From: Acidimicrobiia bacterium
Lineage (GTDB): Bacteria > Actinomycetota > Acidimicrobiia > Spongiisociales > Spongiisociaceae
Assembly: GCA_009841075.1 (NCBI GenBank)
Contig: VXMP01000048.1
Span: 7,090-71,089, forward strand
Direction of reading: 5' to 3'
Length of the DNA: 64,000 nucleotides
Shown here: positions 31,980 through 47,904 of the stretch, piece by piece
Layout of the letters: each line of letters opens with the position of its first letter
Position numbering within the stretch: position 1 is the first letter of the stretch
The notes under the pieces: model-generated
Seen by the model: the letters and a program-made list of their open reading frames with translations, nothing else
What the model was told of the DNA's origin: nothing
The model's database searches: none
Program-made: the position numbers and the translations under genes

Positions 31980-32168
31980 TTATCCACAGCAGGATTCCAT
32001 AGCAGGTCCTGACCAGGGGTGGGCAGTCTCCACTGTATCCTCGGCGACTCGACCGTTCCTCCCCTTGCACTGCGAGCACACCCACACCCTGGGAACCCGG
32101 GCCCCCTCCATAACCAGGGTAAGGTACTCGTAACCGCAGTCCGGACAGACAATTTTATAGACCGGCAT
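31980..32168 (-). CDS. FmdB-like zinc-ribbon protein
   Basis: MPVY..CPDCG...CSQC and C-terminal SCCG. GGGAG RBS; last gene of the xcb operon. Confidence 0.65.
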   Translation of the reverse strand: MPVYKIVCPDCGYEYLTLVMEGARVPRVWVCSQCKGRNGRVAEDTVETAHPWSGPAMESCCG

Positions 32169-32188
32169 CCGGGCTCCGTTTCACTCCC

Positions 32189-33700
32189 TTAACCTCCGCT
32201 TATCTGTCGAGCGTGTTCCAGCAGAGACTCCAAGGCGGTCTCCTGCAAATTACGAGCGGTTGTCGCCCATTCTACGGAGTCATCCAAACGAAGTAATACC
32301 GATGAGCAATGTTCCCGAACCCGATCGGGTGCCGAACCTCCGATCATGTCTCGGGAAGCCACTACCGCGCCGATGTCCAAACCCGTCAAGAATGTCAATT
32401 GAGCCTTATGGGTGGGGGTCAACCTCACCCCGACTGCCCGAGCCGCTTCGGTTAGGCCGGGCTCGGACAAACCATCCTCTCCCGATCGTACCGCCTCTGC
32501 TATGGCCCGACCGATCACCCGATAGGCGCTTCGGTAGTCGATCCCGCCGGCCAGTACCAGACGCTCCGCCAGATCGGTAGCCGTGGTGAAATATTGACCG
32601 GCCGTTTCGGCCAGTTTCCGGGTGTCAACCTCCAAGGAGCGGACCACCTGCGTTCCCAGGCGCACCAGACGGATAGCCATGTCTACCGCACCAATCACCT
32701 CTCCATACAGGTAGAGCCAGTTGTCGGTCCGGGCGGAGGGGGTGCGTTGGGTGACCATCAGCCCGCCAACCCGTCCGATCAGCGTCCCGCACCCGCCCCG
32801 GATCACCGCCAGGGCGTAGGGGTTGCGCTTCTGCGGCAACAACACCGAGGCTCTTGAAGAGGTGCCGCCCAGCCTCACGTACCCGAACTGCGGGGCGGCA
32901 AAAATCTCCAGGTCCTCGGCCAGACGATCGACCGTCAAAACCGCCTGCATAGCCGCCACTCCACAGTCGATCATCGGGTCGCCCGACCACATCCCGTCCC
33001 GGATTTGAGCGGTGGGCCGGCTGAAACCCAGCCGCTCGGCCATGCGCGGACGGTCGAGCGGGAGGAGGGTCCCGCCTACCCCACCTGATCCGGCCGGAGA
33101 TTGGTTGACCAGCCGATAGCACCGGCGGATCCGGGCCAGGTTGCGAATACCCGGTTCGGCGAATCCGGACAGGAAATGTCCGAAAGAGGAGGGCTGGGCG
33201 GGCTGTAGGTAGGTGGTGTCGTTCCAGAAAGCCTCCGCCAGCTCCTCTGAACGACCGGCCCCCTCCTTGGTAAAGGCGGCCACCTCGTCATGTAGGTCGA
33301 GAAGTCGGTCCCGAAGCGCCAGTCGGAAGGCAATCCGTCCTGCTTCTCGTCTGGTCCGGCCGGCCGGGAGCCAACCGGCGGTGGTGCCGAGCCGTTTTTC
33401 CAGCTCTCTTTCCCGGCTGTTGTAGGCGTCTCCGTAGACCGGGCTGTAGGGGAAGTCGGACGGGTCGGTGTCCAGGAAATCCAGCAGCTCCCGACACAGG
33501 TCTGCGGCCGCTTCTTGAGGGATAACCTTCGCTTCGACCAGCTCTATCACATGGCTGAGGTCGGCCCACCCCAGACCGTCGTGCAGGAAGTGGGCATCCG
33601 CCAGCTCCAGACCATATCCGGCTTCGATCAGCTCGGGGGAGGGGCCCGACGCCAGCCGACCTTCCGCGCCCAGATAGCCCTCCGGTGGGGGAACGGTCAT
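32189..33700 (-). CDS. xcbC: Argininosuccinate lyase-like CoM biosynthesis enzyme (phosphosulfolactate phosphate-lyase)
   Basis: Fumarase/aspartase fold with variant signature RASVLLPQKRNP and TYLQPAQP. ATG 33700 coupled to the xcbE stop; CoM cluster context. Confidence 0.8.
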   Translation of the reverse strand: MTVPPPEGYLGAEGRLASGPSPELIEAGYGLELADAHFLHDGLGWADLSHVIELVEAKVIPQEAAADLCRELLDFLDTDPSDFPYSPVYGDAYNSRERELEKRLGTTAGWLPAGRTRREAGRIAFRLALRDRLLDLHDEVAAFTKEGAGRSEELAEAFWNDTTYLQPAQPSSFGHFLSGFAEPGIRNLARIRRCYRLVNQSPAGSGGVGGTLLPLDRPRMAERLGFSRPTAQIRDGMWSGDPMIDCGVAAMQAVLTVDRLAEDLEIFAAPQFGYVRLGGTSSRASVLLPQKRNPYALAVIRGGCGTLIGRVGGLMVTQRTPSARTDNWLYLYGEVIGAVDMAIRLVRLGTQVVRSLEVDTRKLAETAGQYFTTATDLAERLVLAGGIDYRSAYRVIGRAIAEAVRSGEDGLSEPGLTEAARAVGVRLTPTHKAQLTFLTGLDIGAVVASRDMIGGSAPDRVREHCSSVLLRLDDSVEWATTARNLQETALESLLEHARQISGG

Positions 33701-45322: not shown

Positions 45323-45463
45323 AACAGGCTCTATTTTAGAAAGTTCCGGTAGGGTAGAAGGGTTGGGTACCTTGAGACGGGTCCCGAACCTCGGATTAAG
45401 ATAGGGCGCACCAATAATTCGGTTTTATACAAATAAGGTGGCGACCAGAAAGGGGAGGGATTT

Positions 45464-47047
45464 ATGACGGCCAGAACGCTTACTACTTGGGATATCCGCA
45501 AGCAGGATCCCTTGAGTATCCACGATTGGGGTCCCGAGATCGACTCCATGCTGGAAGACCCCGACGACCAGCGGGTGGTGTTCAACGTCGACGAAACCGA
45601 CCCCCGCCCCTTTGATGCCATCTTCCTGGGCGGAGGAGCGGCCGGGCGCTTCGGCTCCGCCTACATGCGTGCCTTGGGTGGACGCCAGCTGATCATCGAC
45701 CGCTGGCCCTTCCTGGGCGGATCCTGCCCTCATAACGCCTGCGTGCCCCATCATCTTTTCAGCGAGGCCGCCGCCGAGTTGATGCTGGCCCGCACCTTCA
45801 GCGGGCAGTACTGGTTCCCCGACCTGGAGGGAAAGATCACCTCCATCAAGGAGATGGTGGACCTGTTCCGGGCCGGACGGATCGCCCCCCACGCCATCAT
45901 GAACTTTCAGAGCAAGGAACAGCTCGACCTCGAATACATCCTCAACGCCCCTGGCCGGATCATCGACTCCCACACCGTCGAGGTGGCCGGGCGGGTCTTC
46001 CACGCCAACAATCTGATCCTCGCCACCGGTGCCCGACCCCGGCCTCTTGACTGCCCCGGTGCCGACCTGCACGGGGTCTACACCTACGAATCGCTGGTAG
46101 AGGATCTGGACTACGAACCCGGCGATACGGTGGTGGTGATAGGCGGTGGGAAAACGGCCGTGGAGTACGGGTGCTTTTTCCAGGCCACCGGGCGACGCAC
46201 CATCTTCGTGGTTCGCTCCCAACTTTTGAAGCTACTAGAAGACGGCGAAACCCGTGACTACGTGATCACCATGATGAAAGAGCAGGGGACCGAAATCTGG
46301 GAGGACTCGCTGCTAACCGAAGTCCACAACGACGGATCGGGCAAGGTCAAAGGCGTCACCGTCTCCACTCCGAATGGAACCGAGTACGTGGAGACCGACT
46401 TCGTCTTCCACGGGCTGGGAGAGATACCCAATTCGGAGATGGCGGCCGATGCCCTCGGGGTGAAACTCAACGACGACGGAACCATTGTTGTCAACCCGCA
46501 GATGCAGACCTCGGTGCCCAACGTGTACGCCATCGGCGATCTGATCGGTACCCCGATGGAGATGTTCAAAGCCCGCAAATCGGGAATGTACGCCTCCCGC
46601 CACATCATGGGCGAAGACATCCACTACGAGTTCAACGAGTTCCCCGACTTCTTACACACCCACTACGAGGTATCCTGGTTCGGGATAGGCGAGGAGGAGG
46701 CTCGGGAACGCTACGGGGAGGTCACGATCATCAAGATGCCGCCCGACTCGGAGGATGGATGGGAGGTAGCACTTCCAGCAACCGATCGCATGATGCTCTA
46801 CGCCTTCGCCAAGCCCCGCATGTCGGGTTTTCAGAAGCTGATCATCGCCTCCGAATCGCGTCGGGTGGTGGGTGCCCATCACGTCGGTGCAGGCGCGAGA
46901 GACGCCTTTCAGTATCTCTTCCAGCTCTACCGCAAGGGTCTGACCATCGACCAGCTGGCAGAGATGGACGAGCTTTTCTTGAACCCAACCCACTTCATCC
47001 AGCTCTCCCGCCTCCGGGCCGGCAACCAGAACCTGCGAGATCTGTGA
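45464..47047 (+). CDS. xecC: NADPH:2-ketopropyl-CoM oxidoreductase/carboxylase (2-KPCC)
   Basis: [25 protein letters not shown] redox disulfide, [34 protein letters not shown] (Phe/His replacing the DSOR His-Glu dyad). Diagnostic of 2-KPCC. Confidence 0.95.
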
Positions 47048-47904
47048 TACCAGACCAAAGACCCCCCTGGTACGAGCTTTCGACCACCAGCGGGGTACGT
47101 AGATCACGCACCCTTAAACCTCGGCAAAGGGGCGTGACCATGGTCATCGACACCGGGGTGGGGCTCGGCCAATGCGAGGACCTGTTGGCCATGGCCGACC
47201 GTTGGATCGACCATTGGAAGATCAGCTTCGGCACCTCGGCCCTGGTACCCAAGGAGCTGCTGACCAAAAAGCTGAACCTGATCGGGTCGGCCGGGATACT
47301 CACCTTCCCGGGCGGTACCATGTTCGAGGCGACCATCGTCCGCAGGCACTGTCGCCCCTATATGCGCAGTGCCCGGGGGATGGGCTTCACGGCGGTGGAA
47401 ATATCCGAAGGGTCGATCGACCTTTCTCCCGACCGACGGCGCGGGGCTATCGAATGCGGCCTGGATCACGAGCTGACCGTGATAACCGAGGTGGGCAAGA
47501 AGGACCCTTCCGCCCAGCCTTCGCCTGAACAGCTGGCAGATCAGGCGCTTCAAGACCTGGAGTGGGGTGCGGCCTGGGTGGTAATCGAGGGGCGGGAGTC
47601 GGGTACCGGAGTAGGGGTGTATGACGAGGCGGGAGGGATTGACACAAAAGCGGTCGAGACCATTGCGGAGCGGATGGGAGACCAGGCCGACCGGCTGGTC
47701 TGGGAAGCACCCCTCAAGGATCAGCAGGCCATGCTGATCGGAAGGTTCGGGATCAACGTGGGTTTGGGCAACATCAACCCGGCCCGAATCCTGGCCTTGG
47801 AGGCGCTGCGTACCGGACTTCGCTTCGAGACCCTCCGGCCGATCGCCACCCGTCTGGCCGCCAAAGGGCAGTGGGACCCGACTACCAGGGAACCCGACCT
47901 ATAG
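47044..47904 (+). CDS. comA: Phosphosulfolactate synthase (ComA / XcbB)
   Basis: [55 protein letters not shown] 47044 overlaps the xecC stop. Confidence 0.92.

Follow-up and report, generated by a model that had tools for sequence, protein, structure and literature searches.

What does a bacterium do with a complete set of genes for consuming epoxides when its genome encodes no recognised enzyme for making them? The question is raised by a 64,000-nucleotide stretch (hereafter the window) of contig VXMP01000048.1, positions 7,090 to 71,089, in the Acidimicrobiia assembly GCA_009841075.1 (family Spongiisociaceae), a metagenome-assembled genome (MAG) of 2.30 Mb in 90 contigs, 95.9% complete and 0.9% contaminated. 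The window carries a gene cluster for coenzyme M (CoM)-dependent epoxide carboxylation together with the genes for CoM synthesis. Textbooks present such metabolism as the latter half of bacterial alkene assimilation, with a handful of cultured soil bacteria, in which the pathway is plasmid-borne, as examples. Here, the same chemistry would be a chromosomal trait conserved within a family of sponge symbionts that has yet to be cultured, and strong purifying selection maintains it in species without any found means of producing the epoxide. We think it rather probable, from the sequence, that the cluster encodes a working, vertically inherited CoM-dependent carboxylation of short-chain epoxides, self-supplied with CoM and leading into coenzyme A (CoA) metabolism, and that the epoxides would be scavenged or detoxified from outside the cell. 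That Xec/CoM is mostly an epoxide-scavenging module untied to alkene oxidation in the same cell, and that oxygenase-less symbionts resembling Ca. Spongiisocius use or detoxify leaked epoxides, is a broader reading that we put forward as a tentative one.

Domains were called with Pfam and NCBIfam profiles on translations of open reading frames (ORFs), and identities were obtained by tblastn of cluster proteins from Xanthobacter autotrophicus Py2 (plasmid pXAUT01, CP000782.1), Nocardioides sp. JS614 (pNOCA01) and Mycolicibacterium chubuense NBB4 (pMYCCH.02) against the whole genome. The cluster spans positions 31980-48834 of the window and all its reading frames are intact. The first-pass annotation, made from the letters alone, had recognised XecA, XecD, an XecE-like short-chain dehydrogenase/reductase (SDR), 2-ketopropyl-CoM oxidoreductase/carboxylase (2-KPCC) and five homologues of CoM synthesis enzymes; every gene that it named was recovered at the same coordinates, and the assignments were confirmed by Pfam, NCBIfam and tblastn. 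The genes and their predicted products are as follows.

31980-32168, minus strand: XecB-like small Zn-ribbon protein of 62 aa with two CxxC pairs (53% identity to Py2 Xaut_4866)
32189-33700, minus strand: XcbC, predicted phosphosulfolactate phosphate-eliminating enzyme of the aspartase/fumarase family, CoM synthesis step 2 (Pfam Lyase_1 and ASL_C2)
33697-34644, minus strand: XcbE, predicted PLP-dependent enzyme, CoM synthesis step 4 (Pfam PALP)
34641-35987, minus strand: XcbD, predicted adenylosuccinate-lyase-like 3-sulfopropionylcysteine synthase, CoM synthesis step 3 (NF052536)
35984-36892, minus strand: XcbA (DUF7714), predicted last, reductive step of CoM synthesis (Pfam DUF7714, E 2e-78)
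37006-38112, minus strand: XecA, predicted Zn-dependent epoxyalkane:CoM transferase (2-hydroxypropyl-CoM lyase; Pfam Meth_synt_2, E 2e-20)
38266-39009, minus strand: SDR1, predicted XecD-type (R)-2-hydroxypropyl-CoM dehydrogenase (best match PDB 2CFC)
39087-39854, plus strand: SDR2, candidate second hydroxyalkyl-CoM dehydrogenase, XecE-like or of the actinobacterial cluster type (called by identity)
39876-40790, plus strand: CoA-transferase subunit A, family I (Pfam CoA_trans; 64% to the JS614 and NBB4 homologues)
40787-41596, plus strand: CoA-transferase subunit B (Pfam CoA_trans; 61-64% to JS614 and NBB4)
41593-43641, plus strand: NDP-forming acyl-CoA synthetase, acetate-CoA ligase family (Pfam CoA_binding_2, Succ_CoA_lig and ATP-grasp_5)
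43638-44030, plus strand: DCC1-like thiol-disulfide oxidoreductase (Pfam DCC1-like)
44036-45058, minus strand: MoaA, molybdenum cofactor synthesis (Pfam Radical_SAM and Mob_synth_C)
45464-47047, plus strand: XecC, predicted 2-KPCC (Pfam Pyr_redox_2 and Pyr_redox_dim; PDB 1MO9)
47044-47904, plus strand: XcbB/ComA, predicted phosphosulfolactate synthase, CoM synthesis step 1 (Pfam ComA, E 3.5e-79)
47914-48834, minus strand: F420-dependent LLM-class oxidoreductase of the uncharacterised TIGR03564 family (287 bits, cut-off 234)

The genes thus lie in two divergent blocks, minus from the small ORF to SDR1 and plus from SDR2 to the DCC1-like gene, followed by MoaA, the XecC-ComA pair and the LLM gene facing it. 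As read from the sequence, the start of XcbC is set by an ATGA stop/start overlap with XcbE, and that of ComA by a GTGA overlap with the stop codon of XecC.

The enzymes that would process the epoxide bear the marks of their known counterparts. Over its full length XecA shares 75-77% identity with its Py2 counterpart, and it shares 46-50% with EtnE of JS614 and NBB4; a tblastn of a plasmid collection returned Py2 (76%), JS614 (48%) and NBB4 (46%), the remainder being methionine synthases at about 30%. Residues H218, C220 and C339 are invariant in a four-sequence alignment (window, Py2 XecA and the EtnE of JS614 and NBB4) and correspond to the His-X-Cys ... Cys motif that we take to hold the zinc ligands of XecA/EtnE. 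By sequence kinship, MetE-like domain and these ligands, the protein is assigned as a predicted epoxyalkane:CoM transferase. XecC is 65% identical to Py2 XecC, matches the 2-KPCC structure PDB 1MO9 from end to end (E 5.5e-237) and keeps nine of the nine residues checked (R56, C82, H84, C87, H137, M140, R365, F501 and H506), whereas the disulfide oxidoreductases (DSORs) of JS614 and NBB4, to which it is 27-30% identical, keep only C87 among them. We take Phe501 and His506, replacing the usual His-Glu dyad, to be marks of 2-KPCC, H84, H137 and M140 to form the enolate site, Arg56 and Arg365 to bind the CoM sulfonate, and C82 and C87 to be the redox-active cysteine pair.

The two dehydrogenases differ in how closely they follow the Py2 enzymes. 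SDR1 has PDB 2CFC, the (R)-2-hydroxypropyl-CoM dehydrogenase (R-HPCDH), as its top structural match (E 2.7e-59, the runner-up reaching 3e-45); it is 45% identical to Py2 XecD and keeps S142, Y155 and K159 as well as R152 and R196, presumably the two sulfonate-binding arginines of XecD. SDR2 is 59-60% identical to the SDR of the etn clusters of JS614 and NBB4 and 49% to Py2 XecE, with PDB 4GH5 as second-best match (E 3.5e-55). The SDR triad is present, and our reading of the alignment (numbering offset 6) places a Lys at the equivalent of K214 and a Thr at that of R211, Arg211 and Lys214 being presumably the sulfonate ligands of the S-specific enzyme (S-HPCDH, XecE). The acyl-CoA synthetase is 47% identical to its JS614 homologue and 41% to that of NBB4.

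The window also holds a complete predicted bacterial set for CoM synthesis, all five genes (XcbA-E) being present and clustered, in the same C-E-D-A order as in JS614 and NBB4. Three of them pass their NCBIfam cut-offs: XcbD (NF052536, 661 bits for a cut-off of 600; 55-56% identical to JS614 and NBB4, 46% to Py2), XcbA (NF052538, 360 bits for 150; 51-53% to JS614 and NBB4, the only comparison made, Py2 xcbA being unannotated in the Py2 locus record) and ComA/XcbB (TIGR03849, 297 bits for 280; 53% to Py2 XcbB, 36-37% to JS614 and NBB4). XcbC and XcbE find their best NCBIfam matches in NF052535 (CoM_syn_XcbC, 395 bits, below the cut-off of 575) and NF052537 (CoM_syn_XcbE, 226 bits, below 450), both 'exception' models with high cut-offs; their identities are 56% to JS614, 52% to NBB4 and 39% to Py2 for XcbC, and 44% to JS614 and NBB4 and 35% to Py2 for XcbE.

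Taken gene by gene, the cluster appears as a mosaic of Xanthobacter-type and actinobacterial-type genes. XecA, XecC, ComA and the small ORF belong to the former, and XcbC, XcbD, XcbE and SDR2, compared both ways, to the latter, whereas XcbA, the CoA-transferases and the acyl-CoA synthetase, compared with JS614 and NBB4 only, match the actinobacterial versions. The pathway of Py2, as outlined in PMC9457059, converts epoxide, CoM and CO2 to acetoacetate. The window and the Py2 xec/xcb locus have the same set of enzymes, including the XecB-like ORF, the 2-KPCC residues and both SDR types, so that the same chemistry would be expected, from epoxide and CoM through a ketone to acetoacetate with CO2 fixation. 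However, a six-gene alkene monooxygenase (xamoABCDEF) lies 2.8 kb upstream of xecA in Py2, on a conjugative plasmid with transposases, whereas the window genome has no such monooxygenase and its cluster is chromosomal, without mobile genes. Conversely, the CoA-transferase pair, the acyl-CoA synthetase and the LLM oxidoreductase of the window have no counterpart in the 41-kb Py2 locus. In the ethene/vinyl-chloride clusters of JS614 and NBB4, the XcbC-XcbE-XcbD-XcbA block (44-56% identity) and the block of SDR, two CoA-transferase subunits and acyl-CoA synthetase (41-64%) are collinear with the window; their etnE is directly followed by etnABCD, which encodes a soluble di-iron monooxygenase (SDIMO), on a plasmid, whereas the XecA of the window has no SDIMO beside it and is chromosomal. 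In the tree, EtnE of both strains lies across a long branch from the XecA of the window, which sits within the XecA clade.

The absence of the epoxide-forming oxygenase extends beyond the window. The first-pass annotation had described a chromosomal cluster set among housekeeping genes, with no transposase and no alkene monooxygenase in the 64 kb, and this picture held: no oxygenase hydroxylase, transposase or integrase family was matched among 50 translations scanned (from 53 non-overlapping ORFs plus the true XecA, SDR and small ORFs), seven of which had no match at all, and GC varies from 0.57 to 0.66 along the window without any island-like break. In the whole genome, tblastn gave no match to XamoA/B/D/E/F of Py2 or to EtnA-D of JS614 and NBB4 at E<=1e-3, and no real match to the SDIMO alpha, beta, TmoB and MmoB subunits of the organism's own family even at E<=10; these queries met only generic Rieske and FAD-reductase similarities. 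As a control of sensitivity, XamoA detects EtnC at 1e-37. Profile searches of the genome were equally negative for SDIMO (PF02332; validated on the Py2 plasmid, which scored), for PmoA/AmoA (PF02461; positive on a methanotroph control genome) and for AlkB (PF00487).

A cluster of this orphan kind has already been published for methanotrophs, and the window adds the case of a sponge Acidimicrobiia without an epoxide-making oxygenase. Methylohalobius crimeensis 10Ki and other methanotrophs are described as carrying an orphan epoxide/CoM cluster, with an XecA-type transferase 77% identical to that of Py2, an SDR, two CoA-transferase subunits, an NDP-forming acyl-CoA synthetase and CoM synthesis genes (Toppings et al., 2024; PMC11507031). 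According to the same article, the cluster of M. crimeensis is induced by ethylene, lies in a genomic island flanked by insertion sequence (IS) elements and has no dedicated alkene monooxygenase, and the authors take the particulate methane monooxygenase (pMMO) of the same cell as the source of the epoxide and detoxification as the role (PMC11507031). The Methylococcaceae loci among our relatives have this same gene content. Unlike the methanotrophs, the window genome has no PmoA/AmoA, its cluster is syntenic throughout the family and free of mobile genes instead of lying in an IS-flanked island, and its habitat is a marine sponge and not a wetland. In the literature surveyed, with supplementary tables and one taxonomic paper outside its scope, we found no description of a CoM epoxide pathway in sponge Acidimicrobiia; a term search of the main texts of PMC9999580, PMC11706023, PMC12263773, PMC12008989 and PMC8941161 gave no mention of CoM-dependent epoxide metabolism.

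How long has the cluster been in this lineage? Relatives of XecA were sought by scanning a single genome from each species with a pattern, which found 419, and the best 80 were kept as loci. The closest (90-95% identity) come from sponge MAGs titled Acidimicrobiia, Ca. Spongiisocius (which is placed in Acidimicrobiia) or Ca. Spongiisociaceae, several being complete chromosomes, in agreement with the acidimicrobial origin that the first-pass annotation had suspected; more distant carriers include Pseudonocardia, Actinomycetospora, Methylococcaceae and Betaproteobacteria. The system is not confined to this one genome, given the 419 relatives and the presence of XecA in 21 of the 29 genomes of the family (window genome included). 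The XecA tree, one of the checks suggested by that annotation, places the window in a 16-row clade of sponge Acidimicrobiia (SH-aLRT 99), apart from Py2 and EtnE; this clade is nested in another of 60 rows (SH-aLRT 99) whose titled members are almost all Actinomycetota, whereas Py2 XecA groups with Proteobacteria. Because the tree nests the window among Acidimicrobiia and Actinomycetota, it argues for long residence of the cluster in the lineage and not for recent import. A recent transfer from Xanthobacter was considered and rejected on the same placement of the two XecA and on the lack of a GC island.

Gene order is shared across the family. It runs LLM, then ComA-XecC-acyl-CoA synthetase-CoA-transferase-CoA-transferase-SDR2, then SDR1-XecA-XcbA-XcbD-XcbE-XcbC-small ORF-LytR, from which the window departs only in that the DCC1-like gene and MoaA separate the acyl-CoA synthetase from XecC. 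These two are probably incidental insertions, because homologues occur in the flanks of none of the 80 related loci. The other neighbours are more faithful: CoA-transferase subunit A stands beside XecA in 67 of the 80, subunit B in 65 and the acyl-CoA synthetase in 40, and an LLM oxidoreductase homologue adjoins the cluster in 29, none being seen in the proteobacterial loci inspected. The small Zn-ribbon ORF, although its own match to Zn_ribbon_8 is weak and under the cut-off, is a conserved and unexplained member of Xec clusters, with homologues in the flanks of 52 of the 80 loci, across phyla; in Py2 the homologue, Xaut_4866, whose function is unannotated, sits between xecA and xecC. Two Acidimicrobiia chromosomes of 4.1 Mb (loci L016 and L017) show a rearranged cluster, in which XcbC is absent between XcbE and the small ORF with no room for it (about 13480-14630) and, in L017, the block of SDR, CoA-transferases and XecC is missing from the 10 kb on either side of XecA.

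The oxygenase follows another distribution than the cluster. In only one of the 80 loci, from an alphaproteobacterial MAG (L055), does an SDIMO lie within 10 kb of XecA. In the family, ten genomes carry an SDIMO and all ten carry XecA, which amounts to 10 of the 21 genomes with XecA and none of the eight without it, counts on which we make no statistical claim, kin not being independent. The SDIMO carriers fall mostly in sister genera (7/8 in genus g4 and 2/2 in g3), whereas among the 11 other genomes of the window genus (g1) XecA is present in ten and an SDIMO in one, so that nine of the ten XecA carriers of the genus lack it. Where the genomes are assembled in one or two contigs, 0.3-3.1 Mb separate the SDIMO from XecA.

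The SDIMO operon of the sister genus (L090 8231-12938; G012:C1) is of the six-gene, four-component toluene/alkene type, with alpha, TmoB-like, MmoB-like and beta subunits, a Rieske ferredoxin and a FAD reductase. Its alpha subunit shares 67% identity with a 'toluene monooxygenase' from Rhodococcus koreensis and is about equally far (47-50%) from toluene monooxygenases (49-50%), isoprene monooxygenase and XamoA (47%), and its substrate cannot be read from the sequence. For the first-pass annotation, an alkene monooxygenase operon elsewhere in the genome would have made this a conventional alkene pathway; none was found in the window genome, but the ten SDIMO-bearing relatives may, by that reasoning, be conventional alkene oxidisers. 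The window genus has the look of one from which the oxygenase has been lost. In the window genome, the flanks of the sister-genus operon map to different contigs (C68, C44, C80 and C62), which speaks neither for nor against a clean deletion.

On a wider scale, 49 XecA-bearing species genomes (loci L006-L054) were searched: 20 encode an SDIMO, two PmoA and 27 neither, as do 18 of the 25 genomes of the Acidimicrobiia clade among them, single absences being soft in a sample that comprises many MAGs. The oxygenase-less state is thus the commoner one among the species genomes tested. The two with PmoA/AmoA homologues and no SDIMO are gammaproteobacterial carriers (L048 and L052; genomes G072 and G076), an arrangement as in the published methanotroph case.

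A cluster without its oxygenase might be a decaying and functionless relic, left behind when the monooxygenase was lost; the apparent loss in the genus and the DCC1-like gene and MoaA, inserted in the window genome only, could be seen in this light. The cluster is nevertheless under strong purifying selection in SDIMO-less species. When eight cluster genes of the window were compared pairwise with those of four congeners lacking an SDIMO (L006, L010, L012 and L014), dN/dS came to 0.03-0.06 for XecA, to 0.08-0.10 for XecC and to 0.08-0.21 for the six others, values that are approximate with dS at 0.8-2.1, near saturation. Moreover, three sponge metatranscriptome libraries from one study contain contigs that match the cluster at >=99% identity with 0-1 mismatches, on XecA and XecC in 3/3 runs, XcbA in 2/3, ComA in 1/3, the junction of the LLM gene with a hydrolase gene in 2/3 and LytR in 1/3; contigs of this kind, all from one study's RNA libraries, neither establish transcription nor allow genes to be ranked. 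XcbC, XcbE, XcbD, SDR2, the CoA-transferases and the acyl-CoA synthetase have no such contig, which is not evidence of silence. With frames intact, catalytic residues kept and the cluster retained in 10 of the 11 other genomes of the genus, we regard decay as highly improbable. Sequence words of the stretch are found at 0.07-0.11 in the RNA runs (X18-X20), and 0.87-0.95 of sampled words in runs labelled sponge or coded organism from five studies, among them the possible source study (P1).

If the cluster works, the epoxide must come from somewhere, and three accounts compete with an outside supply of it. It may be made in the cell by an unrecognised oxygenase, a P450, a flavin epoxidase or the LLM enzyme, in which case the organism would oxidise alkenes in the conventional way except for an unusual first enzyme. 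The search for P450s that had been advised with the first reading returned one, of 406 aa on contig C86, and in the 29 loci mentioned above an LLM-class oxidoreductase is conserved next to the cluster. However, the P450 sits in a housekeeping context (nucleoside ABC transporter, DisA/IspD/CysS) with neither a ferredoxin/reductase partner nor a tie to the cluster, the LLM protein scores as an F420-dependent TIGR03564 member while its matches to FMN monooxygenases are at E 1e-13 or weaker, and we know of no P450 or LLM-class member that feeds a CoM pathway. We hold this account to be unlikely. That an ordinary propene/ethene pathway, as in the sister genera, has merely lost its monooxygenase operon from the assembly or the binning is more improbable still. 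The 90 contigs, the completeness of 95.9%, the lack of a 16S rRNA gene in the assembly and the SDIMO of the congener and the sister genera would fit such a gap; against it, no fragment of an SDIMO subunit was detected in the window genome at the loosest threshold, and three congeneric genomes of one or two contigs (G025, G030 and G031) carry XecA and lack both SDIMO and PmoA. Because XecA without a monooxygenase recurs in genomes of so few contigs, a gap in the assembly would hardly account for the absence.

The substrate of XecA and 2-KPCC might also not be an epoxide at all, but an electrophile derived from a halohydrin or haloketone, or some other C2-C3 compound of the sponge. Halohydrins had been raised in the first-pass annotation, and the 27 of 49 species genomes with neither SDIMO nor PmoA suggest a substrate independent of alkene oxygenases. 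On the other side stand the closeness of XecA to the Py2 epoxide enzyme with its Zn ligands kept, the ketopropyl-CoM site of XecC kept at every residue and the R-HPCDH arginines of SDR1; two stereo-complementary dehydrogenases would fit only a chiral 2-hydroxyalkyl-CoM, the product of epoxide opening, and the general profile scans, which included no search specific to halohydrin dehalogenases, showed no dehalogenase in the window. A non-epoxide substrate is accordingly doubtful, about as unlikely as the in-cell oxygenase. Scavenging or cross-feeding is the most likely answer to the question of the source: the oxygenases are missing, the cluster is retained and selection acts on it, and for these reasons an external origin of the epoxide is suggested. 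The use of preformed epoxides, as first proposed for this locus, is plausible given that no oxygenase was found, and goes beyond what the analysis demonstrates.

Several points weigh against scavenging by a working pathway, besides the approximate dN/dS values and the single-study RNA contigs. The genome encodes no known epoxide maker among SDIMO and copper monooxygenases, flavin epoxidases (StyA type) and halohydrin dehalogenases not having been searched, and its P450 could in principle epoxidise alkenes. For a single MAG of 90 contigs a missing contig is not strictly excluded, and one congener (G028) does carry an SDIMO, on a 23.8-kb contig. The handling of the S-enantiomer by SDR2 is uncertain, because the enzyme lacks the Arg that is presumably one of the S-HPCDH sulfonate ligands, and a C3 substrate is only a likely choice, the block of CoA-transferase and synthetase being typical of ethene-type clusters. 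Finally, the pathway is predicted here from sequence, and the identity of the substrate, the direction of the flux and the outside source of the epoxide are all deduced from it.

On the reading that we prefer, of epoxides scavenged from outside, the cell would work as follows. XcbB, XcbC, XcbD, XcbE and XcbA would make CoM from phosphoenolpyruvate, sulfite and cysteine. The Zn enzyme XecA would use the CoM thiol to open the epoxide, most likely epoxypropane, epoxyethane or epoxybutane being possible, and SDR1 (R-specific) and SDR2 would oxidise the two hydroxyalkyl-CoM enantiomers to 2-ketopropyl-CoM. XecC would then carry out an NADPH-driven reductive cleavage of the thioether and carboxylate the enolate, giving acetoacetate and free CoM, and the CoA-transferase pair with the NDP-forming acyl-CoA synthetase would turn the product into acetoacetyl-CoA or acetyl-CoA. 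Candidate producers of epoxide in the sponge would be the SDIMO-bearing sister Acidimicrobiia, microbes with pMMO or ammonia monooxygenase (AMO), the host and abiotic chemistry.

If this is true, over half of the XecA carriers (27 of the 49 species genomes tested) would be epoxide consumers, and several species would share in the turnover of short-chain alkenes and epoxides in sponges, and probably also in that of soils and lakes, with cross-feeding of a reactive and toxic intermediate between them and one CO2 fixed per C3 epoxide. The symbionts would live partly on short-chain epoxides, or shield themselves and their host from them. CoM would then be a widespread bacterial cofactor in the sea, and through 2-KPCC a minor CO2-fixing reaction that has been overlooked would join the metabolism of sponge symbionts. 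XecA offers a concrete target for probing the flux of epoxides in holobionts.

Elsewhere in the window are genes for a molybdo-hydroxylase, an amidohydrolase, a beta-carbonic anhydrase, pyruvate dehydrogenase E1, CofD/CofE, cell-envelope proteins, propionyl-CoA carboxylase subunits, lipoamide dehydrogenase, methylmalonyl-CoA mutase, a penicillin-binding protein and Sir2. The beta-class carbonic anhydrase (8455-9087, minus strand) lies about 36 kb from the CO2-fixing 2-KPCC. Just downstream of the cluster (51404-58034) are a carboxyltransferase of the propionyl-CoA carboxylase type, a biotin carboxylase, a lipoamide dehydrogenase-like DSOR and the methylmalonyl-CoA mutase. Two adjoining ORFs, 15861-18458 (minus strand, 865 aa) and 18455-18829 (minus strand, 124 aa), have no Pfam match at E<=1e-5 and neighbour a DUF5719 protein and a large glycosyltransferase-like protein. 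The F420 synthesis genes CofD/CofE (22916-24612) are found in the same window as the TIGR03564 LLM oxidoreductase.

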